From a virus, in the IMG/VR virus record IMGVR_UViG_3300037515_000188, positions 32,001-96,000 of that record: a stretch of 64,000 nucleotides of DNA; one strand, 5' to 3'. The translations under genes and the position numbers were made by a program. This document shows positions 16,552 through 62,546 of this stretch, piece by piece. Below the pieces are notes generated by a model. It was not told the DNA's origin. It was given only the letters and a program-made list of their open reading frames with translations, and made no database searches. The stretch's first letter is position 1, and each line of letters starts with the position of its first letter.

Positions 16552-19287
16552 TAGGAGTAATTAATATGCCTATTATCTTAATGATTATGGCTACTATCAT
16601 TGTATTAATAGCTACTCATCTTATAGGACATGATCGACAAATTTTGTAATACATCATTATCGGAGTAAATGCTATGAAGCGTTTATTTGTTGGTATCACA
16701 CCATCTGCATCGCGTGAAGTATTTCAATCGTTTATAACACCTACAGCAGATACGCATGGTGAAAAATATCTAGCATGCATTGGTCCCTTTCGTACTCGTA
16801 AAGCTGCTAATTTTATGTCTACTCATGGTAGAAATAATCCACATCTGCAAACGGTTGCGGATGCTGAACGCATAGTAAAACTTTTAAATTAACTTGATAT
16901 AATCCTAACATTATAATATAATATTCCATATTGAATAAGTAATTTAAAGGAAGAATATCATGAACTATACCTATGTAATCGACTATTCGGACTACGGATG
17001 GTATGTTGAATGGTATACGGATTCTGATAATGGATCAGGATTAGGGGACAATCCTAAAGTTCAATACTGGTATGGAACACGGGATGAATGCTATGACCGG
17101 GTTATGGAAGCGCCATGCGAAGATGCATGGTTTGATATGTAAAATAATCAAAAGGTATAAACTATGAAGGATTTATTTAATGTATTTTTTGATAAACCAG
17201 ATGCATTGGATCGTTTAATAGAATGGATCAATCAGGAACCTGAAGATAAGCTTTTTCAGTTTAATCGTGAAGTATTATCCATTATACGTGACTGGACCAA
17301 GGATCGTCAACGTATCGCAGACTTGGAAGATGCATTAAGACCATTCGCACATCCTGATTTGTGCAAGATGTTAAGCGGTAATGTTAAAGGTGATGCAAGT
17401 ATTGTTTTTCAAAGAGATAATGCTTTCTTGAGGATCGGAGATTTTGCACGAGCACAAAAGCTTTTAGCTAACGATTAATAAATATCTTTATGATTAATTC
17501 TCATTGTCTCATATCATTTGATCCTAATCGTCATGAAATGGATCGTGTATATTTTAATCCAAATTTTGATGCGGTGGACTGGGTAGAAGAATCTTTTAAA
17601 ATCGCCCCATCTGGTGGATACTTGTGCGGAGTGTTTAAAATAGTATTTCCTTCTACACTGTTATTGATTGATGTGAGATATGCTTAAATACATCTAAAGA
17701 GGAATAACATCATGACTACTATTAATGATCTTGAAACATATGTTACAAAATTAGAGGAACTTGTTTTACAGGGTGAAAGAATAGTAGAAGATTTCTTACC
17801 TAATATTGGAAAATGTGCATTACAAAATTACGCACAGCTTAATGAATTTTTAATTGCTGCCAGTTCATTGCGAAACAGTATTAAGGATCGAGTGAATTAA
17901 AAGCGGGTGTTCTTAGATAACGTTTGATATAATCCTGTCACTATACTATAATAGCGGAATGAATGATCGAATAAGTGATGAACGGATTACTGCGATTGAG
18001 GACATGCGCTTTAAAAATGTAATGGTTTCACCGCATCCGGCACGTTCAGATTTGGTAATGGAATTGATGAAGGCCCTTAAAGCCGAGCGCGCCCATGCTG
18101 TAGAATTGGAAAAACTCTTAAATAAATCTTGATATAATCCTGCCACTATGGTATACTAATATTTCAATAGGGAGATAAATTAATGAAGCCTACCTCTATC
18201 AGTTTTGAAAAAGAAAGTGTTGTTGACAATGAGAAGATACTCGCTATCCGATTGAAAGACAACATTGTTGAACTTGAATGCGGTAATAGCGTTTATCTTC
18301 ATGTTAATGACATTGATTGGATAGTTGATGTATTATCGCAACTAAATGATCCAATCTGAATAAGAATTGGTATAACAATCTAGGAACCAATTGTACACTC
18401 TGAAAGGAAACAACATAAAGCGCAGGAGTCTGATACCATGACTAGAGAAAAACTGCAAGATTACCAGAGAACAAAAACCGTGTATGAATGGGACTTTGAG
18501 GTAACTGACAAGTATGGTGACGTGATCGACCATAATCATATGGATCATCTACCAGTCAAGACTAATCTAACTGGTGAAAAAAACAACAAAGGTGATTTGG
18601 TCCTTATTCGTGATAGTGGCACGGATGCAGATGGTTTGCAGGATCGTCAGTGGGCTTACACCGAGCATGACGATGCTGGCTACCTGCAACTGCCATCGCA
18701 CTTTGATGGTGGATACAAAGTTCCGTCCAGATATCATACCGAACTGAAGAGATGGCAAGGAGATTAACACCATGACGAAAATCAAACGCACTGCAAAATG
18801 GATGAAGTATTTAACCATAGCAGAATTACGTCATATGAAAGATTGGCAGAAATCTTTAACGCTGAAAAGTTTTGTAGTTAACCGTGAGTATCAAACAAAA
18901 TCAAACGGGATAATTTGTTGGGAATGTAAAACGATTGAGAAAAAGTTATTGAAGGCTGGAGTACGATTGCCATTCAGCTTGACATAATCATCTTAATATG
19001 GTATAGTATTATTATGTCCTATATACTTAAACGAACGGATCAAAGTAGTGGCTATGTAGCCAAGTCTGGTTGCTCTCATAGTTATACAAACAAGATAGCA
19101 GAAGTTCTAAGGTTTGCTACCTATGAAGAGGCTAAGACAAATGCCTGCGGAAATGAAATTGTAGTTAATCTTGACCAAGCTGATCTAGTAATCTGAGCAT
19201 ATATCATAGACCGTAACATTAAAAAACAAGTTTGGAAAAAAATTAACTTTGTTTTAAAAGTACCCTTATATAATGGTGGGGGTGGAA

Positions 19288-19620
19288 CTCAGTTTTCAGG
19301 GTCTGTATATACTTATTTTTATATTTCATGAAAAATTTATATTAACCATATTTTTATATCTTTTAATAATAATTATATACTTATCTTTACATAAAATTTT
19401 ATATTAATATACTTTATACGTATTTTTATACCCTATTATATTATAAAAAATTAGCTCTGTTTTAAAATTACTCTTATATTATAATAGCGTAAATCTCAGT
19501 TTTCAGGGTCTGTATATACTTATCTTTACATTATATCTAAAATTAAACATTTCTAAAATTTCCATTTAATGTATCATATATAACGCATTAGACCCTTTAA
19601 TGTATTATATATAATACATT
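19288..19620. repeat. Non-coding convergence zone with 29-bp direct repeat and other short repeats
   Basis: CTCAGTTTTCAGGGTCTGTATATACTTAT at 19288-19316 and 19495-19523; TTTAATGTATYATATATAA twice near 19565 and 19596. Confidence 0.8.
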
Positions 19621-19628
19621 AACCAAAA

Positions 19629-22600
19629 CTATCTTATATTTTTTTTTAAAAAATTTTGATCCATTTCATCTTGCATTATCATTTTAATATCAGATAAATT
19701 ACTATCATAAACTAATTTACTGTATATCTTCCTACGGTAAGTAAAATGATCATAATATATCATGCGAGGATGTAATATCTTAAAATAACATTTATTAATA
19801 ATATGCATAATCTTAATTTATAAGTTTATCAATATTCAATAAAAAATTTTATTATTTTTTTAATTAACTATATATTAAAAATTTTTTTTACCAAAAAATT
19901 TCGATTTAATTCATTCTTTATCATCACTCTTATATCATTTAAATGAAATAATATATGATATAGATAATATGCTTTAGACTGATTATAATTTAATAGCGTA
20001 TGCTCAATATAAGCAATTGAATCATTATACCTATAAAAAATATCTTTAACAATATTCATCTTCTAATTCTTCCACTATTCGATCTATTAACTCCCCCAAA
20101 ATATCAGTAAAATATACAACATCATATAACAGAGAATCATCATAATTCAATGGTAAACGTATTTTATAATAAAAATCTACATCAAGTTGTTTATATATTG
20201 GTTTCATACTAAATTTATCCTCTAATAATTAATTACAAATTTGTCAATTTTACTAGAAAATTCAATAAATCTTATATATAATTTTTATTCTTATTTCATG
20301 ATTTATTATATTCTTTATTATATTTAAATCATTATCATACATTATTTTACTATACATTTTTCTCATACTAAGACTCCGAGGGGATAAGATATTAAAAATT
20401 AAAGTATCTTTAATGATTTTCATTTTTTCATTCTAATAATAATATCTTGCAAAAAATAATCAATAACATTTATCATCATCCATAATTTTATATCATTTTC
20501 AGATGGATATATCTCTTTAAAATCGTGCATCATTAATGCCAATTCAATATTAATTTTTAATGTGTTATAAATTAATTTCATCAAATTTCAGACTAATATT
20601 AATTTACTTGTAATTATATTCATATACTTCTATTTCTTTTAATATTATATCCCTAATATTCTGATTAAATAATACTTTATCATACAATAAAACCCAATAG
20701 TCCGGATATAAGTTATATAACCTTAATGGTAGTTCAATTACTTGTTTATAAATTATTTTCATCCATCGCATTCTTTATTATCATATTCTTTATTATATTC
20801 AAATCATTATCATATAAGAATCTATGATATAAATAATTTCCTTTAAAATTGAAATCATTATCAATATAAACAAATAAATCGTTATATCTATAAAAAATAT
20901 CTTCAATAATTTTCATCTTTTCCATTTTCCAATTATATAATCTATTACATAATCTTCTATTAATTCTTCTAATACTATATTTACTGGTTCCCATATAATA
21001 TTATTAAAATATATACCATCATATAAAAATAATGTTGTATTATAATTATTATCAATTAACATTAAACGTATTCTATTAAATACATCCATAGAAATTTTTT
21101 TATAAATCAGATTCATAAAATATATAATCCAATTCTTCCAATACTACATCCAACAAAAATTCTTGATCCCCCAAATCATACATCTGTAATAGTTCTGAAG
21201 AATAATAACCTCCATCATATAATGCCTGACTAATAATATCAATATTAAACTGTTGATAAATCAGGTTCATAAAACATATAATCCAATTCTTCTAATATAA
21301 TATCAATTAATGAGTCTTCTTGAATCCTCCACTCAATTAATGAGTCTTTAATCCTCCACAATAAATCATACATCTGTATTTTTTGATAATAATCATTATC
21401 AAATATAGATTGTTCAATAACATTAATATTAAATTTTTTATAAATCAATTTCATATATTTTTTTTCTTAGTTCATGATTTATCATATGCTTTATTATATT
21501 CAACTCGTTATTATATATTAATGTATGATATTTGGTATAAATAATTTCATCCAGATCAAACATATAATGTTCAAATGCATTAAATGATTTACCCTTTAAG
21601 AATATTATTTTTCCAATAGTTTTCATAAATTTTTTAATGATTCCAATATAGCACTCTTTAAACGTATTATATTCATCATAATAGTAAAATATATTACCTC
21701 TTCTATTTTTGCATACTTTTTTTCATGCGTCAGTATATACCTGCCATCACCATCCCATTGTATTTGTTTATATATTAGTTTCATATATTTTCAATTCATC
21801 CAATATGATATCGATCATTGATTCTGAGTCATGCCATATAATATTCTGTTGTACATAATTCCATGTAATATTTTGTTTCCTATTCATAAAATCATGTATC
21901 TGAAATATTTCTGAATGATACTCGGTAACGAATAACATGTATACCTTATCTACGATACTAGCAAATTGGACATGAATTTGTTTCATAATTGCAATTCATC
22001 CAATAATACTGTTCTTATACCCGTAAGTCCGGGAATATAGATTATACGATTTATTTTTATGCTTTTAGCATATAATAATGTATAGAATAAATTTCCATCA
22101 AATTTATTTAATTGTTTATATATTAGTTTCATATATTTTCAATTCATCCAATATGATATCGATCATTGATTCTGAATTATACCATATAATATAATCCCAT
22201 GTAATACTTTGTTGCTTGTTTATGAAATCATGTATCTGTAATACTTCCGGATGATACTCGTGACATAATAATATATAAATAGTTGGTCTTATTTTAACTA
22301 ATTGTTTATTAATTATTTTCATATAATTCATCCAACATATCATCCACTACTTCTAATGTAATTCTAAATCGAGTAATATTATATACACTATCCATATAGT
22401 GAGATAAATACATCATTGCATCATAATGATTTTCACTTAATGATGAATATATTTTATCAAATACATTTTCTTCAAATTGTTTATAAATTAATTTCATTTT
22501 TTATTTGTTCTTTGATAACACTTAATATAGTTACAATATCAACCGAATATAATGGTAGAGTATAATAAAAATGAGTTTTTATTAACATCCAATGTATAGA

Positions 22601-25548
22601 ACCGAATACATTTTCTTCAAATTTGTTATAAATTAATTTCATATATTATACGCACCATATCATTAAAAAATAATTCATCTAATAATAAATTCTGAACCAA
22701 CACCAAATGCATGATTCTATAATGTTTTAACGGCTGCTTTATAACGTAAATTATTATCTATATTAAATTTAAACCCATTTAATTCATTATATACAATATT
22801 CATTATTTTAATTTGCCAATTCATTCAAAATAAATAATCTTAATAATTTTGTTGGATTATCAACATACCAACATATATTTGTTTCATCCGTTCCGGAAAT
22901 TTCGTTCCATAATGTAATACCCATTGCTTTTAATACAGTCTTTTTATATACCAACTTATGGAGTAATTTACCATTAGCAGTAAATTCATTTAATGAGTTA
23001 TAAATAATTTTCATCATAATTTATCCATTATAATATCCATTATGATATCATGTATTGCATCTACCCTTAATAATTTTTCTATTATTATTGGTTTGGAAAT
23101 ACACCAACATTTAGATATTTCATTTTCCGTTGCCGTGAAATACATTATACCCGACATATTTCCACGAAATAATATATAAGTTATTTTAACTAATTGTTTA
23201 TTAATTATTTTCATCTAAATTGGATTAATTCATCTATTATTAATTCCATCATAATTATTTCTAAAGTATTAAATTTAAATGTATGATAATACTTGTTATA
23301 CTCATTTATACATATTGAATTATATACGTCAGTAAGTATAATTGATTCAAATTGTTCATAAATCAATTTCATGAATTTATTTTCTTATAACTTATACAAA
23401 TCATATAACGTGTATAATATAAAATCTTTCATATGCAATCCAACATCTTCTCGTATAATAACTGGTTGTTCATGTTGGTAATAATACTTACAATAAATTC
23501 CCCGCCTGATTTGTTGTTCCCTAAATTTCATTTGGTTATAAATGAATTTCATTAATTTGTTCCATGATTGATAATTTTAATAATGAAGGGCTTTCACGAT
23601 TACTTAAAAAAACATTTGGCCCATTATGTAAAATTAAATTATACATTATCACTGGTTTAATTTTAACTAAAATAAATAGCATGTTTAATCTCCATTAAAA
23701 TAAATTGTATTAATGTTCTTGGAGTATTATTAATATTCCAAAATCTAGTTTTTACCATATCATTATTATAACATAATAATTTAAATAATAAGGGTTTTAT
23801 TTGAGATAATTGGTTATTAATTGTTTTCATACAGTATTGTAACATTATGTAAATTCAATTGTTTATAACTTAATTTCGTAATTCTTCCATTAGTTTATTT
23901 CGTATATCTAATATACTTTCAAAATAAAATGACAATAATAGTTTTGGATAATAATGAATACCCAATATTTTCCAATATATGTTATCAAATATATTTTCAT
24001 CAAATTGGTCATAAATTAATTTCATAAATTTGATCCCATATCAATATTTTAATTAAATTTAAATGCCCCAATATATTATAGGCAAATTATGCTTTTTACG
24101 ATATTCATGTATTAATATATTAATGATAAATGCATTTAATTGATTATAAATTAATTTCATCTTCGATATACTCATTATCATCTATTTCATCAACTATGGC
24201 ATCTGTAATAGTCCATAAAATATTATCATTTATAATATAGTCAATACAATCATAAGATTCTTCGCTTAATATAACTTTAAACTTACCAATTAATTCTGAT
24301 TCCAATTTTTTACAAATTATATTCATTTTTTATTTCTTCTTTTATTCTTAGTAATGGAACAAATACATTATTTGTAGGAGAATTAATCACTATATTTTGA
24401 TCATATGTTAATATTTTATTAAATTCATAATTATAATAAACTATAAGAATAGCTATTATATTAATTATAATTTCATTTAATTCTTTATAAATTAATTTCA
24501 TCTTCTAAATACTCATATACTCATATTCATTTATTTCATTAATTATAGTAGTAATAATCAATAAAATATTATCATGAATATATATTGCATCATAATATTC
24601 TTCACTTAATGGCAAATATAATTTATCTGTAAATATTAAATATAATTCTTTATAGATTATAATCATTATAGTATCTAATGTAATATTTCATAAAAAATGT
24701 AATCTTGTATTATTCTAATTAAATTAAATGATCTATGTGTAGTATGATATAATTGATTTACAATGCCTGAATGATCTATAACCATTTTACGAGGTTTCTC
24801 ATGGACACGAAGATCAAATAATTTGTTTTTAATAATTTTCATAAACTTGATCCAATATCAAATATACTGCCGCATGTCCAATCTGCGTTCTTATCATAAT
24901 CTGCATTCTTATCATACCAGTTAATTGATATATTCTATTTGATATAACATTATTATAAATATAATTTACATTATTCCTATCGTGCAATCGGTAATTTAAT
25001 AATTGTTTATAAATATTTTTCAATTTTTTTTCTTATGGATGCATCTAATCATCTGTATTTATTTTCGAGGAAAATGTATAACATTCTATTAACAAGTTTC
25101 TTACCATAACTGTAAAATTAATTTTAAGTAATTCTTTAAATAATAATTTTCTTTTTTCTTTAAATTTATGTTTTAAGACAACCTGCATGACAAATACATC
25201 TAAATTTATTTTAATATTGTTCATAAATTATTTTCCATGCATTTTTTTCATCAATTAATTGTTCTTTTATTAATAATCGTATAGATAGTAAATCATTATA
25301 ATAATATGATAATGATCCAATTATTATTTTTGATTTATTAGAATTTAATTCATTGCTATAAATTATATCATATATTGGTCGAAATATCAATGCTCTATTT
25401 ATAATAGTTTTCATAAATTATCAAGTTCGTGAATTATAAACATTTTTATATTATTAAAAATCAATAACATATAAATTTTATAATAATCTGAATATGCTAT
25501 TAAATCAAATATATATGTTATTTTTAATTTGTCGTTAATTAATTTCAT
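19629..25548 (-). other. Tandem array of about 36 paralogous mini-ORFs (45-70 aa, MK(L/I)I(Y/N)K.. start), several degenerate
   Basis: Manual translation; starts approx. at 25548, 25414, 25023, 24842, 24667, 24501, 24326, 24160, 24025, 23830, 23682, 23552, 23372, 23214, 23014, 22803, 22642, 22497, 22322, 22132, 21986, 21784, 21626, 21454, 21270, 21116, 20916, 20762, 20581, 20423, 20207, 20059, 19808 plus degenerate units. Confidence 0.85.
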
Positions 25549-25557
25549 AACTATTGT

Positions 25558-25592
25558 ATTATACATTGTTTTTTTATTAATATCAATAAATA
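25558..25592. promoter_or_regulatory. Back-to-back promoters: sigma70 (minus, array) and late ATAAATA (plus, kinases)
   Basis: Minus TTGATA(25581-86)-17-TATAAT(25558-63); plus ATAAATA 25586-25592. Confidence 0.65.
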
Positions 25593-25597
25593 CGTCT

Positions 25598-26245
25598 ATG
25601 AAATTGAATGAAATAATAGATTTTAAACATGAGATAAAATCAGCATCCGATCTTAAACCCGGAGTATTACAGGGTAGAGGATTTTTTTCAAAGGTATATA
25701 CCGATCAGGATGATCCACACATGGTTATAAAACAATCTAAATTTTCCGACCAACTTGATACAAGTGATGGGTATTACAAATATATTGAAGCAACCATTAA
25801 AAATGGAATGAATGGGGTTAATCCATATGTACCTAGAGTTTATAAAATAAATGCGATTGATACTGGTATGCAACTTATGAAAGGAGTAAATTCTTATAAT
25901 CATGAAGTTCAAATAGAAAAATTAAATGTGGTGTATGATCTTGATATTAAAGATATTGAATTTATTTTGTCGAAAATTTTTCCAGAAGATTTAGTATCTT
26001 CATTATTATCAAAGGAATCACCAAATGAAATATTTGAATCCGTATCTGATATATTATTTAAAATATTAAAAGGTACATATACAATTAAGAAAACCTTATC
26101 CAAGGATTTAAATCAAGTATTGGAATTAATTAAAAAATTATATGATGATAAAATAATTACAGAAATTGATTTAAAACCAGCAAACTTAATGATTCGTAGA
26201 AGTCCATATGGTCCACAACTTGTTATTACCGATCCGGCGGCATAA
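25598..26245 (+). CDS. T7 gp0.7-like protein kinase 1
   Basis: GRGFFSKVY, VIK, PRVY, DLKPANLM, ITDP. Confidence 0.8.
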   Translation: MKLNEIIDFKHEIKSASDLKPGVLQGRGFFSKVYTDQDDPHMVIKQSKFSDQLDTSDGYYKYIEATIKNGMNGVNPYVPRVYKINAIDTGMQLMKGVNSYNHEVQIEKLNVVYDLDIKDIEFILSKIFPEDLVSSLLSKESPNEIFESVSDILFKILKGTYTIKKTLSKDLNQVLELIKKLYDDKIITEIDLKPANLMIRRSPYGPQLVITDPAA

Positions 26246-26246
26246 T

Positions 26247-26858
26247 ATGAAATTAAATGAAATTATAGACTTCAGACATGATAAAATTGATATGTCTTCC
26301 ATAAAACGTGGGGAACGAATGGGTTCAGGATTCTATTCAACTGTGTATGCGGATAATGATGATCCACACATGGTTATAAAGGATATGGAACGCCATGGGG
26401 GTGATAAACCAAGAGATGGATTTTCCAGCTATATAGAAGCAATTATTGAAAATGGAATGAATGGAGTAAATCCTTATGTTCCTAGAGTGTATAAATTAAA
26501 TTCCTCTAAAACCAAAGATAATGAATATAAACATACTTATCAAATTGAAAAATTAAATGATCTTGAACATTTAGATAAAAAAGATTTTGAATTTATATTT
26601 TCAAAACTTCTTTCTGAAGATAAGATTAAAGAATATACAGATCATTCTGTTCGTTTAGCATGGGCTTTGGCTTCTTATATTGATGATTTAGTACATGGAT
26701 ATGAACCATTGTCAAAATCCAAGAAATTAAATGAAGTTATAGAACTTATCAGACAATTATATCAGAGAGGACTTTCCTATGATATAAAACCTGAAAATAT
26801 GATGTATCGTTCAACACCATATGGGGCACAATTGGTTATTAGTGATCCATTATATTAA
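26247..26858 (+). CDS. T7 gp0.7-like protein kinase 2
   Basis: GSGFYSTVY, VIK, DIKPENMM, ISDP; close paralogue of kinase 1. Confidence 0.8.
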   Translation: MKLNEIIDFRHDKIDMSSIKRGERMGSGFYSTVYADNDDPHMVIKDMERHGGDKPRDGFSSYIEAIIENGMNGVNPYVPRVYKLNSSKTKDNEYKHTYQIEKLNDLEHLDKKDFEFIFSKLLSEDKIKEYTDHSVRLAWALASYIDDLVHGYEPLSKSKKLNEVIELIRQLYQRGLSYDIKPENMMYRSTPYGAQLVISDPLY

Positions 26859-26869
26859 TAAATATATTT

Positions 26870-27493
26870 ATGAAATTAAATGAAATAATACAATCGGAAG
26901 TATCTATTCATGATACAAAAGATTATAATCCATTACAGATGGGAGATCATATAGGAACCGGAACATATTATACAAGTTATGAAAATCCTGATGATCCTCA
27001 TACAATTCATAAATTCTCAAGACAACCAACAATATCCCATGATGGATTTAAAATTTATGCTGATTACATTATAAAATATAATTTAGCATCGAAAAATCCT
27101 TATTTTCCAAGAATATATAAACATCGAACTAATATAGAACCTCCATCTGATTTATCATATGAATTTGAAATAGAAAAATTATTATTATATTATGATATAA
27201 GAATAAAAGAATTTCGTCCCATACTTGAATTATTATTTAATGACTCTGAAGTTGAAGAAATTATGAACATACATAGTAATGAAGGAATTACAATTAAAAT
27301 TGCTAGAAAAATACGATTGATGATAACACAAAATATAAAAAGTAAATCAAAATTATTAAATCAGGCATTTTTTATTATACAAAAGATAATACGTGATAAT
27401 TCTGATATATATATTGATATACATGAAGATAATATCATGTTTAGAAGAACTAATTCTGGCATTCAATTAGTTATTAATGATCCATTAGTTTAA
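26870..27493 (+). CDS. T7 gp0.7-like protein kinase 3
   Basis: GTGTYYTSY, IHK, PRIY, DIHEDNIM, INDP. Confidence 0.8.
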   Translation: MKLNEIIQSEVSIHDTKDYNPLQMGDHIGTGTYYTSYENPDDPHTIHKFSRQPTISHDGFKIYADYIIKYNLASKNPYFPRIYKHRTNIEPPSDLSYEFEIEKLLLYYDIRIKEFRPILELLFNDSEVEEIMNIHSNEGITIKIARKIRLMITQNIKSKSKLLNQAFFIIQKIIRDNSDIYIDIHEDNIMFRRTNSGIQLVINDPLV

Positions 27494-36070: not shown

Positions 36071-37292
36071 CGGTGCTCATGCCGCCACCTTAACAACCAC
36101 TGCCGCACGAGCACAAAATGCGCTGCTCGGCGGTGATCTTAAAGGTAAAAGCTCGTTCCCGCAAACGGACGCCGACAACTCGGCGCGACGGAGGATATTT
36201 CGAGCCGCATTCACGTCTCGATCATGTGACTCACCACAGTCGCTGCAATCCCACTGTCTTACAATCAACCCGTCCATTCCATGAGGTCCAGTTAACGAAC
36301 CACATGAGGAACAGGTGACGCTGGTGTTCTTTTCATTAATGACTTCAACAGACCTACCGGCGTACTCGCCCTTATATTGTAACATCTGTCTGAACATGCC
36401 CCAACCTGAATCATAAACGGATTTTGCTATCCGTGTTTTAACTAGTTTTGGACTGCTCACATCACCAATGATTATTTTCTGGTATTTATCTATAATTTTC
36501 CGTGAAAATTTGTGCAACGCATCAGCGCGTTGTCTTTTTATTTTCCGGTGAATCCGTGCAATTTGTTTCTTATGTCCTCTCCGTTGCGCATTTGCCAATT
36601 TATCGGCTGAATTATGGGTCCATTTTCCAGCTTCCAGAACATCTCCATCACTGGTTGTGGCAATGGATTTCAATCCCAGATCAATTCCCACGGATTCATA
36701 TGGTGCGATAGCCAATTCTACCTGCACTTCAACTGGCAAACAGAGCCACCAATCACCAACCGCATCTTGTGCAAAACATCCCGCTTTCCATTTTACGCCA
36801 TCAAGTCGTGAGGACTCGAATACACGAAATGTCTTACCAGCAAATCGTAAATATTTTCCTTTACGTTTTATACTTAATGCCTTGAACGGAATCCAACCCA
36901 AAGAACGATTCCAGCCTCCACTCTTGCGCCAGCGCAATCTTAGTTTTTTGGCAGCACTTCTTTTTTGTTCATAATGAATGCAAATCGATTGAATGGTGTG
37001 TGAACCGATTTTATCAAAATATTCCATGGCACCTGCCGTTAGCTTGCATAGATCAAATCCACTCATCCATTTACGGTTTTTATCCGTTCTTATAGATGCC
37101 TTAAAACTTGTCTCATTGCAAAAATTAAAAACCTGATTGACTTCAATGGCTGCGGCATTCAACCATGGATATGCCTCACGCTTAATTTTAAGGCGTAATG
37201 TTTTCATAAATAAATGCGGCATGATCAAATTGTTATTCATTATTAATTCCTCTGCTCCGGTTTCACTGCGCGACCGTCTTATGGGGTCGAAA
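36071..37292 (-). mobile_element. tnpB: tnpB-only IS200/IS605-type element (TnpB 36077..37240)
   Basis: [28 protein letters not shown]; GC-rich; ends GATG|TTT ... GGCATGAGCACCG. Confidence 0.92.
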
Positions 37293-60574: not shown

Positions 60575-61770
60575 TTTAGATTCCATTGAGATGAACACAT
60601 ATAAGAGGAACTATGGAAATAAATAATACGCTTTCATTCGTCCGCACGTTTCGTTTCAAAATAAGGCGGGAAGCATATCCGTGGCTGAATTCTGCGGCTA
60701 TGGAAGTGAATAATGTCTGGAATTGGGCTGCCGAAACAAGTAAAAAGGCGGGAAGACCATTTTATGGCAAGACGAAATGGTTGGGTGAATTCGACTTGAA
60801 TAACCTTTCGGCTGGAGCATCGGGGTGTTTCGAACGGATCAATGCTGCTGTGATTCAGCGAATTAATGGTGAATATGATAAGAATCGTCGGGATGCAAAG
60901 AAATTAAAATTGCGCTGGCGTGTAAGCCATGGAAGCGGTAGGTCATTGGGTTGGATTCCATTCAAGACATTAAGTCTAAAACGTAAGGGAAAATATTTAC
61001 GCTTTGCAGGCAAGACATTTCGAGTATTTGAAGCTGAACGGTTAAATGGTATTAAATGGAAAAGTGGTTGTTTTGCACAAGATTCCGTTGGGGATTGGTG
61101 GTTAAATTTATCAGTTGAAATGCAAGTCGAACAAGATATTGCCACAAATGAAATTGTGGGAATTGATTTAGGACTGAAATCCATTGCTACAACCAGTGAC
61201 GGAGATAAATTGGAGGCAGGGAAGTGGACATATAGTTCAGCCGATAAATTGGCAAATGCACAACGGAGAGGGCATAAGAAACAAGCAAAACGGATTCAAC
61301 GGAAAACAGCAAGGCAACGCAAGGATGCCTTGCATAAATTTTCACGGAAGATCGTAAATAATTATCAAAATATAATCGTGGGTGACGTGAGCAGCACAAA
61401 ATTGGTGAAAACACGGATGGCAAAATCCGTGTTGGATTCAGGATGGGGCATGTTCAAGAATTTTCTGGAATATAAGAGCCAGCAGGCAGCCAGATCATTT
61501 TCAATTATCAACGAGAGCTACACAACAAAAGTATGCAACGGCTGTGGAGCCTTAACGGGACCTACAGGTCTGGACATGCTTTCTGTAAGAGCATGGATAT
61601 GCAGTGACTGCGGTGTAGGTCATGATCGGGATGTGAATTCAGCCCTGAATATCCTAGCTCGCGCCGAGTTGTCGGCGTCCGTTTGCGGGAACGAGTCAGT
61701 TGGCTCATCTGTTTCATATCGCCGCCAAGAGGCGGGGATAGAAACGGTGAGACAGGAGGCATGGGCATCG
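60575..61770 (+). mobile_element. tnpB: tnpB-only element (TnpB 60613..61773) inserted at codon 6 of a late gene
   Basis: GIDLG, CNGC..CSDC, DRDVNSALNI; removal restores MKNIDVRVGG. Confidence 0.92.
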
Positions 61771-62546
61771 TGAGAGTAGGTGGTGTACGATTAGAAGATG
61801 GTAAAATTATAGACCTTGTTATAGGAATATTGGATGAGCCTCCTTTATTTGATGCTGTAAATATAGGTAATTTTACATTTAGTTTAAGTGATAAAGTTTT
61901 AAGATTTAATACTGGAGAAAATTTAGTAGCTTTAAATACTTCTATCACAGAAAATCCAAATTTAAAATCTTCATTGGGTAGCAATTGGTTAAATGATGAT
62001 TTATCATTTAATCCCGTTCCATTTAATAATCTTCCAAATATAATTGGATTAGATTCTACAGATAGTTTATTTAATGTAATTGAACAAATTACTGATTTAA
62101 TTGATAATATTAATAATGTTACATTAGAAGATATAAATTTAGAAGATATTATTACCCCGGATATGAGTATATTAGCCTATTTAAGTGGTGATTTAATATT
62201 CGTATCAATAGAACAAGTATTAGAGGGTAGTATAATAAGTCTCGATTTTGATAATTTAGAAGGGTTTAATATAACTGATACTACTACGGGAAACATGATA
62301 ATATTTCAAAATGAAGAATTAATATCAAAAAAAGTTCATTTTAGATATGAAAATTTATCTACTAATGTGGGACATCTGGTAACACATAATTTAAATTCAG
62401 AATATTGTTCTGTGTTTTGTATTAATCCGGCGACCAAATTAAGTATTGTTCCTAGCAGTATAGAATTCGTAAGTACAAATGAATTACTTATTAATTTATC
62501 ATCCGCACAACCATTAATAGCTCTTGTTACTAATTTTAATGTTTAA
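61761..62546 (+). CDS. Late structural protein, restarted from an ATG in the element end
   Basis: Original start 60559 after TATAAATA; C-terminal VTHNL domain. Confidence 0.65.
   Translation: MGIVRVGGVRLEDGKIIDLVIGILDEPPLFDAVNIGNFTFSLSDKVLRFNTGENLVALNTSITENPNLKSSLGSNWLNDDLSFNPVPFNNLPNIIGLDSTDSLFNVIEQITDLIDNINNVTLEDINLEDIITPDMSILAYLSGDLIFVSIEQVLEGSIISLDFDNLEGFNITDTTTGNMIIFQNEELISKKVHFRYENLSTNVGHLVTHNLNSEYCSVFCINPATKLSIVPSSIEFVSTNELLINLSSAQPLIALVTNFNV

Follow-up and report, generated by a model that had tools for sequence, protein, structure and literature searches.

The window analysed here is a 64,000-nt stretch of viral DNA, bases 32001-96000 of the 109,848-bp IMG/VR virus record IMGVR_UViG_3300037515_000188 (CheckV completeness 47%), and its subject is an array of very small genes at window positions 19629-25548. 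On the minus strand, running from 25548 to 19629, 35 open reading frame (ORF) units of one family lie head-to-tail, with 96% of the 5.9 kb coding; approximately 30 of the units are intact (45-72 amino acids, aa) and four to five are degenerate. This count is close to that of a preliminary description of the sequence, which had proposed about 36 chained small units. ATG-to-stop ORFs of at least 45 aa number 31 on the array strand, covering 89% of it, and one on the opposite strand, against a mean of 1.3 and a maximum of 7 in 500 composition-matched Markov-1 randomisations. There are no in-frame stops in the 1951 codons of the units, whereas 13-16% of codons in the two other frames are stops (one per 6-8), and the units show codon periodicity, with G at 19% of first and 7.5% of second positions. 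A profile of the family, searched against the six-frame translation of the whole contig, recovered 34 sense-strand array ORFs at E<=0.002, with all else no better than E=0.01; as self hits, these matches show the specificity of the profile and not its significance. An alternative genetic code was rejected, since the large genes are intact under table 11, as was fusion of units by read-through, since the frame changes at most junctions.

Selection maintains the stretch as a tandem family of approximately 35 genes, which forms part of an accessory region in a large, uncultured T4-like phage from sediment. Selection on the units is indicated by their intact reading frames rather than by dN/dS: paralogs differ at 20-60% of sites, and in a neutral substitution simulation only 24%, 8% and 3% of units were still open at 10%, 20% and 30% change, compared with approximately 30 of 35 observed to be open.

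Junctions and proposed expression of the array

The preliminary description had read a conserved junction both as the MKLIYK start of one unit and, often, as the (Y/N)EINL* end of the previous one, and this reading held, as the motif is enriched and marks the unit starts. The junction sequence ATGAAATTAATTTATAAA occurs 25 times in the window at <=3 mismatches, against 3.8 expected, and 19 of the 25 are array starts. In its own frame it encodes MKLIYK (ATG AAA TTA ATT TAT AAA), and the conserved junction is the N-terminal coding sequence of the family. The same bases hold stops in the other frames, TGA at bases 2-4 and TAA at bases 15-17 (across the family, TAA or TGA within bases 12-17), such that a shift of one base gives an immediate TGA and a shift of two bases gives GAA ATT AAT TTA TAA, i.e. 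EINL followed by a stop. Because the junction stops both frames, an upstream gene in either of them ends inside the start of the next gene, and that start incidentally creates the (Y/N)EINL* tails, which are not a conserved C-terminal motif.

As an upstream gene has three possible arrival frames, there are three classes of junction, all of which are observed. Arrival in the two-base-shifted frame corresponds to ten 17-nt overlaps (...EINL*) and four 14-nt overlaps, in which the variant MKIINK moves the TAA earlier; arrival in the one-base-shifted frame corresponds to six ATGA overlaps; and same-frame arrival, or an earlier stop, corresponds to eleven short gaps of 3-59 nt. With one further overlap each of 20, 26 and 1 nt, stop and start overlap at 23 of the 34 junctions and are separated at the other 11, in keeping with the translational chaining first proposed. 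The sole unit with Gln at position 6 (TAT CAA, which lacks the stop) is the one whose upstream neighbour overlaps it by 26 nt. Stops in both other frames fall within the first 20 nt in 30/35 units, compared with 42% of the large genes of the contig, and conservation extends to synonymous sites, with Ile encoded as ATT in 37/50 cases within codons 2-7 compared with 94/257 in the unit bodies.

The head of the array carries a promoter-like site, TTGATA-17-TATAAT (25558-25586, minus strand), which matches at 11/12 positions, a level reached by chance in A+T-rich DNA; 9 nt separate its -10 box from the first ATG, and the first cistron would be nearly leaderless if the site were used as a promoter. 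Directly after the last stop is a long 78-nt hairpin (19555-19632, minus strand; -24.8 kcal/mol, z -7.7), a candidate terminator or processing site; no other 80-nt window from 19100 to 26000 is as stable. Within the array, folding is weak (mean -8.2 kcal/mol) and no terminator-like site was found. Shine-Dalgarno-like motifs precede 2/35 units, compared with 22/60 large ORFs and approximately 9% of random positions. From the junction overlaps, the scarcity of Shine-Dalgarno motifs, the promoter-like site at the head and the terminal hairpin, a single translationally coupled operon is fairly likely. Transcription would run as one unit from the promoter-like site (25586-25558) to the hairpin (19632-19555), giving an A+U-rich mRNA of weak structure on which cistrons without Shine-Dalgarno motifs would be translated through coupled termination and reinitiation.

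The junction sequence would account both for the translational chaining and for harmless gain and loss of copies. A tentative extension, possible but in our judgement improbable, is that these 17-18 nt function as a gene-cassette joint, which starts one gene and stops whichever upstream frame arrives, so that unequal recombination between any two joints could gain, lose and reorder whole genes with translation unbroken, in effect a self-repairing, integrase-free evolution of a library of small helical binders. If so, this array and two other micro-gene arrays on the contig, described below, would together give approximately 15% of the sequenced contig to such libraries. A pattern search for two junction motifs 125-155 nt apart gave zero matches in IMG/VR. 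The same pattern matched 15 JGI metagenome contigs, which were rejected as carrying an unrelated element resembling a miniature inverted-repeat transposable element; this element, approximately 300 nt long and present in many JGI metagenome contigs, is bounded by inverted ends GTATCCTCTCAAAA...TTTTGAGAGGATAC and contains a direct repeat, CTGATGAAAATAATTTATAAT.

Members of the family and their divergence

The family signature consists of an N-terminal MK(L/I)IY(K/N)Q(L/F), a mid-protein Tyr and a C-terminal I..(I/L)..EL helix, at a mean column identity of 20% across the family. The diverged middles and retained C-terminal I..(I/L)..EL of the preliminary description were thus recovered, with the conserved N-terminus and C-terminal helix present in all subfamilies. 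At least three subfamilies are interspersed along the array, namely A (MKLIYKQ..., often acidic), B (MKII(K/E)D...Y.K..YDNDLNIIKN, mostly basic) and C (MKIINKQLVKI(R/K)P...), and net charge ranges from -12 to +6 among units. The proteins are predicted to be small (45-72 aa), soluble and all-helical. A membrane-peptide reading was rejected, as a 19-residue Kyte-Doolittle mean of 1.6-1.8 is reached in units 7 and 12 only, the other 33 being at or below 1.5. AlphaFold gave a three-helix model for unit 33 (pLDDT 69) and a single long helix for unit 25 (pLDDT 74), both from paralog-only alignments and with pTM 0.34-0.40; the two all-helical models agree with the small helical proteins first suggested, which belong to one diverged paralogous family.

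A profile search of 1.84 billion protein cluster representatives returned 14 matches, all from this phage lineage's own array: 13 are letter-for-letter array proteins and the fourteenth (P0012) is unit 35 with a poly-A length variant. No credible family was found in Pfam or PHROGs, two single-unit Pfam matches (E 4.6e-4 and 7e-3) being taken as chance. Foldseek gave zero matches at E<=0.001 against BFVD and the PDB, the best ESM Atlas score (0.76) was lower than shuffled proteins attain, and the array had no match in Rfam. By these searches, the family is confined to this phage lineage.

The units, all on the minus strand, are numbered from the head. Unit 1 (25411-25548, 45 aa, MKLINDK...HELDNL) has an ATGA overlap with unit 2 (25211-25414, 67 aa), a subfamily B member whose C-terminal WKIIYEQY is the start remnant of a lost unit; unit 3 (25045-25224, 59 aa) is atypical and Lys-rich (MNNIKINL...), and unit 4 (24829-25023, 64 aa) has a TTG start (LKNIYKQL). 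The basic unit 5 (24675-24842, 55 aa) and acidic unit 6 (24505-24666, 53 aa) are followed by unit 7 (24310-24501, 63 aa), the start of which is the exact consensus, unit 8 (24144-24326, 60 aa), with a net charge of -12 and the end ...EINL*, the truncated unit 9 (24059-24160, 33 aa) and unit 10 (23870-24025, 51 aa). Next comes a unit-start remnant in which ACG replaces ATG (ACGAAATTAAGTTATAAA, 23831-23879), then unit 11 (23663-23830, 55 aa, subfamily C, MKTINNQL..IKP) and unit 12 (23536-23682, 48 aa), which has a subfamily C body without the canonical N-terminus. Units 13 (23385-23552, 55 aa), 14 (23211-23372, 53 aa), 15 (23014-23214, 66 aa, subfamily C) and 16 (22808-23014, 68 aa) precede units 17 (22717-22803, 28 aa) and 18 (22626-22712, 28 aa, ...LLLDEL...EINL*), the N-terminal and C-terminal halves of a split unit. 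Unit 19 (22481-22642, 53 aa) leads to unit 20 (22309-22497, 62 aa), which has the exact consensus start and was the top match, to itself, in the 1.84-billion-protein search.

In the second half of the array, unit 21 (22116-22322, 68 aa, subfamily C) forms a duplicated two-unit block with unit 22 (21983-22132, 49 aa), and differs from its paralog unit 23 (21768-21986, 72 aa) by a 12-nt in-frame indel, among other changes, at 65% identity. Unit 24 (21623-21784, 53 aa) and unit 25 (21438-21626, 62 aa, subfamily B) are followed by the pair of unit 26 (21245-21454, 69 aa) and unit 27 (21100-21270, 56 aa, net charge -12), which share 54% identity. Unit 28 (20913-21116, 67 aa) forms a block with unit 29 (20746-20916, 56 aa, subfamily B) that is duplicated as units 33 and 34. 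The remaining members are unit 30 (20604-20762, 52 aa), unit 31 (20420-20581, 53 aa), unit 32 (20262-20423, 53 aa, subfamily B, net charge +6), the acidic and modelled unit 33 (20046-20207, 53 aa), which has a GAGG Shine-Dalgarno-like motif after a 54-nt gap, unit 34 (19868-20059, 63 aa, subfamily B) and unit 35 (19629-19808, 59 aa, subfamily B), the last residues of which are altered by the poly-A variant at 19639.

The closest pairs have 65%, 54% and 45-47% aa identity, and the duplicated subfamilies that the preliminary description had picked out by their start positions were all recovered (22322/21986 at 65%, 21454/21270 at 54%, 20916/20059 at 45%, and 24025/22642/22497 at approximately 40-43%). 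Duplication involved blocks, with units 21 and 22 matching units 23 and 24, two units away, and units 28 and 29 matching units 33 and 34, five units away; across the array as a whole there is no link between similarity and distance (Spearman 0.02). Between units 21 and 23, identity is 95% over an 84-nt tract, which takes in the C-terminal helix, the junction and seven codons at the start of the following gene, compared with 79% in the upstream body, and similarity ends abruptly after the junction motif, a pattern that fits exchange or conversion ending at the junction. There is thus some evidence, in this tract and in the ATT bias of the junction Ile codons, for the recombination at the junction proposed initially. 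Decay is also apparent: the unit starting at 24160 is truncated, those at 22803 and 22712 are one unit split into two 28-aa halves, the N-terminus of that at 23682 has been overwritten, and there are two start remnants. Among units thought to be frameshifted or truncated, that at 24160 is indeed truncated (33 aa), whereas those at 21784 and 20581 proved to be intact 53-aa ORFs, both without any frameshift.

These observations are in line with the birth-and-death process envisaged at the outset, with duplication of blocks and loss by truncation. The array grew as segments, often two units long, were duplicated and then diverged strongly, with sequence homogenised across junctions and members lost via truncation and fusion. 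The term 'hypervariable' is apt among paralogs but not between samples, as the same sequence is present in contigs of four sediment runs with a single 1-nt variant. This is a poly-A length variant at window position 19639, found in contigs of two of the four runs, which changes the end of unit 35 from ...NFLKKNIR* to ...NFLKKI* and agrees with the alternative database protein P0012. No rearrangement or structural variant of the array was found in the contigs of the four runs, which have a depth of 2-8x and drop rare variants.

Phage setting and candidate functions

The contig is placed in a T4-like setting by its genes for rIIA and rIIB, two RNA ligases (an RnlA-type ligase/tail-fibre attachment protein and an Rnl2-like ligase) and a T4-type ATP-dependent DNA ligase; it also encodes glycosyltransferases, homing endonucleases, two TnpB proteins and three tRNAs. 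Its 109,848 bp at 47% completeness would imply a genome of approximately 230 kb, which may place it above the 200-kb threshold of jumbo phages. The stretch is present in at least seven sediment metagenome DNA runs. G+C content is approximately 29% in the contig and 21% in the array stretch. With T4-type genes on the contig and homologs of the array nowhere else, the array has the character of a variable block of a T4-type genome. In a phage collection, near-identity DNA searches gave zero matches for either the array or 15 kb of the window. Scans of IMG/VR and JGI metagenomes found no relatives either, whether the query was a single unit, rIIA, the kinase-like gene flanking the array or an alignment of the three kinase paralogs.

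A T7 gp0.7-like protein kinase (PHROG 15752) is encoded by three tandem paralogs, 33-49% identical, at 25601-27493 on the plus strand, divergent from the array head. The downstream side of the array faces a convergent block of small plus-strand genes; the gap between the two, below the array, holds two exact copies of a 22-nt repeat, TATACAGACCCTGAAAACTGAG (19288-19309 and 19495-19516, minus strand), where none is expected by chance. The two TnpB (OrfB_IS605/Cas12f-like) genes are at 36077-37240 (minus strand) and 60613-61773 (plus strand); relatives of the former, at 55-71% aa identity, are found in metagenome-assembled genomes of Steroidobacteraceae and other gammaproteobacteria from peat and soil, a weak hint of the host. 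Several large structural-type genes (e.g. window 57041, 51294 and 34370) are preceded, at a distance of 25-33 nt, by the T4 late-promoter word TATAAATA, the contig-wide frequency of which does not exceed that of control words.

Upstream of the window are two further micro-gene arrays, at contig 0.6-8.8 kb (minus strand) and 10.3-12.2 kb (plus strand), together comprising approximately 45-55 genes of a different family (MKIL(N/K)(T/S)LIYN..., MKILKF...). No homology between the two families was detectable with hhalign (probability 1%); the weak signals between them are weak cross-profile matches and a 17-residue BLASTP match with subfamily B (E 0.001, chosen post hoc).

The best explanation as a whole, to which a probability of roughly 0.55 is assigned, is a selected tandem family, expressed as a coupled operon, of host-directed binders. 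The proteins would act in the infected cell as diversified small binders for host take-over or counter-defence, a weakly supported role that would parallel the small accessory early proteins of T4-type phages; the preliminary description had likewise suggested early effectors acting as anti-defence binders or decoys. The kinase paralogs beside the array head, of the T7 gp0.7 takeover type, were counted in favour of the explanation as a whole. Were the family a set of host-directed binders, its copies might each point to a separate host target or defence system, and the array would be a ready screening panel.

Several results weigh against this explanation. The preliminary description had assigned the array one sigma70 promoter at its head; the site exists, but sigma-70-like sites number 97 compared with 96 expected in shuffles and the array interior contains another 11/12 match. 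With promoter-like sites at chance frequency, neither the operon boundaries nor early timing are established. No RNA runs holding the stretch are listed among public runs. Nei-Gojobori dN/dS of the closest pairs is 0.6-0.8, indicating weak residue constraint although the estimate is unreliable at 21% G+C, and these values are not clearly apart from the dN/dS near 1 that the preliminary description took as the mark of a neutral decayed repeat. No relative was found in another phage to bear out conservation, unit order or selection across genomes. The structural models, of modest confidence and in two differing forms, do not establish a common tertiary fold. Finally, no homology of any unit to a characterised defence inhibitor or associated regulator was found in Pfam, PHROGs, BFVD or the PDB.

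The same dN/dS values are among the points in favour of weakly selected filler, in which headful packaging into an enlarged capsid would tolerate, or favour, repeated tandem duplication and the copies would drift apart without individual function. Several units are decaying, tandem duplication has been proposed as a route of genome growth in jumbo phages (Hua et al. 2017, PMC5646251), and in culture cyanophage S-PM2 can do without its ORFanage and bears a cost for it (PMC4503421). Drift of this kind is nonetheless unlikely given that approximately 30 of 35 frames are open at paralog differences of 20-60%, far from the 8% and 3% simulated under neutrality at 20% and 30% change, and given the codon periodicity, the in-frame indel and the conservation of N-terminus and C-terminal helix in all subfamilies.

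A second alternative is that the conserved N-terminus is a capsid-targeting sequence and the units are internal proteins that would be carried in the head and enter the cell with the DNA, there to block host nucleases; if packed in this way, they would be the largest such arsenal known. The phage is T4-like, T4 IPII and IPIII start MKTYQEFIAE and IPI starts MKTFKEF, which the array's MKLIYKQF(E/D)E resembles with a one-residue offset, and targeting would explain a conserved N-terminus on variable bodies of any charge. The resemblance, however, spans 7-8 residues and needs a gap, too short for statistics, and the unrelated second micro-gene family of the contig also starts MKIL, such that the start may reflect initiation on A+T-rich mRNA and not targeting. 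The T4-type protease site [LIVFM]xE follows the leader (residues 5-20) in 14/35 units, at a density of 0.027 per residue compared with 0.044 elsewhere, the specificity applied being that of T4 as the phage's own protease is not on the contig. There is one copy of TATAAATA on the array strand, as opposed to several before structural-type genes, and the conserved C-terminal helix would be left unexplained. On this balance, packaging in the head is judged quite improbable.

A silent store of cassettes, with units serving as donors to one expressed gene through exchange at conserved ends, as with pilS or vls cassettes, would account for variable middles between conserved 5' and 3' ends and for homogenised tracts at junctions. 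It is very hard to reconcile with units that each have their own start, stop and open frame; in addition, a longer expressed homolog was not found in the 110-kb contig or in protein databases, no recombinase is adjacent and the four sediment samples contain no structural variants. A non-coding decayed repeat or RNA array, for which the very low G+C and the repeated 18-nt motif might speak, is contradicted by the ORF statistics and periodicity, the weak folding of the strand and the absence of an Rfam match, and can practically be discounted.

Comparison with known phage systems

Several described systems resemble the array in part. The T-even internal proteins IPI, IPII and IPIII, with their capsid-targeting sequence (Repoila et al. 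1994, as cited in PMC3012670), are alike in having a short conserved N-terminus on a diverse small protein, of the pattern MK.(.)Y(Q/K)(E/Q)F. They exist in few copies, whereas here there are 35 in tandem, with no conserved protease site, a single late-promoter word on the array strand and a helical character with a conserved C-terminal helix. In T4-type hyperplastic regions, small non-essential ORFans are shuffled at PeSL motifs (Arbiol et al. 2010, PMC2839356; Comeau et al. 2014, PMC4122927), and the likeness lies in a T4-like genome, a block of small ORFans and a short conserved motif between genes as the apparent recombination point. A PeSL is, however, an early promoter plus a terminator stem-loop between unrelated genes, whereas the motif here is a coding start/stop overlap between paralogs; separation of genes by promoter and terminator is not seen, with overlap at 23/34 junctions, promoter-like sites at 97 compared with 96 expected and no terminator-like site inside the array.

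The 'ORFanage' of the T4-like cyanophage S-PM2 comprises 33 contiguous ORFans at one locus that are absent from relatives and lost in culture (Puxty et al. 2015, PMC4503421). It shares with the array a contiguous run of ORFans in a T4-like phage, but was read as a set of independent acquisitions with no paralogous family described, as opposed to the internal duplication apparent here. T4-type phages also undergo tandem 'accordion' amplification of counter-defence genes under selection (Srikant et al. 2022, PMC9391042; PMC13096335), in which a small accessory gene is multiplied by recombination between short homologies, as may have happened here. By this analogy, an accordion-type amplification is a plausible origin of the array, although accordion repeats are recent, identical and dosage-raising, whereas this array is old and diverged, with each copy different.

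A further likeness, in layout, contradicts the statement in the preliminary description that no such system was described: jumbo phages G and 121Q have been reported to carry tandem arrays of more than 30 similar genes (Hua et al. 2017, mBio, PMC5646251). These too are long head-to-tail arrays of one family in large tailed phages, attributed to tandem duplication, and the present array likewise exceeds 30 head-to-tail copies, with 35 units of which 34 were recovered by the profile. Taken from their published description only, the copies in G and 121Q are 'very similar', whereas the mean column identity here is 20% and the best pair reaches 65%, and the profile search of 1.84 billion representatives found no sequence relationship to them. 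Long arrays of tiny paralogous genes are mentioned in the literature only in passing, and most units of this one fall below the usual length cut-offs of gene calling, in large phages that hold most of the unexplained genes in virology. The tandem-array layout is therefore already known from G and 121Q, and the family that fills it here is new.

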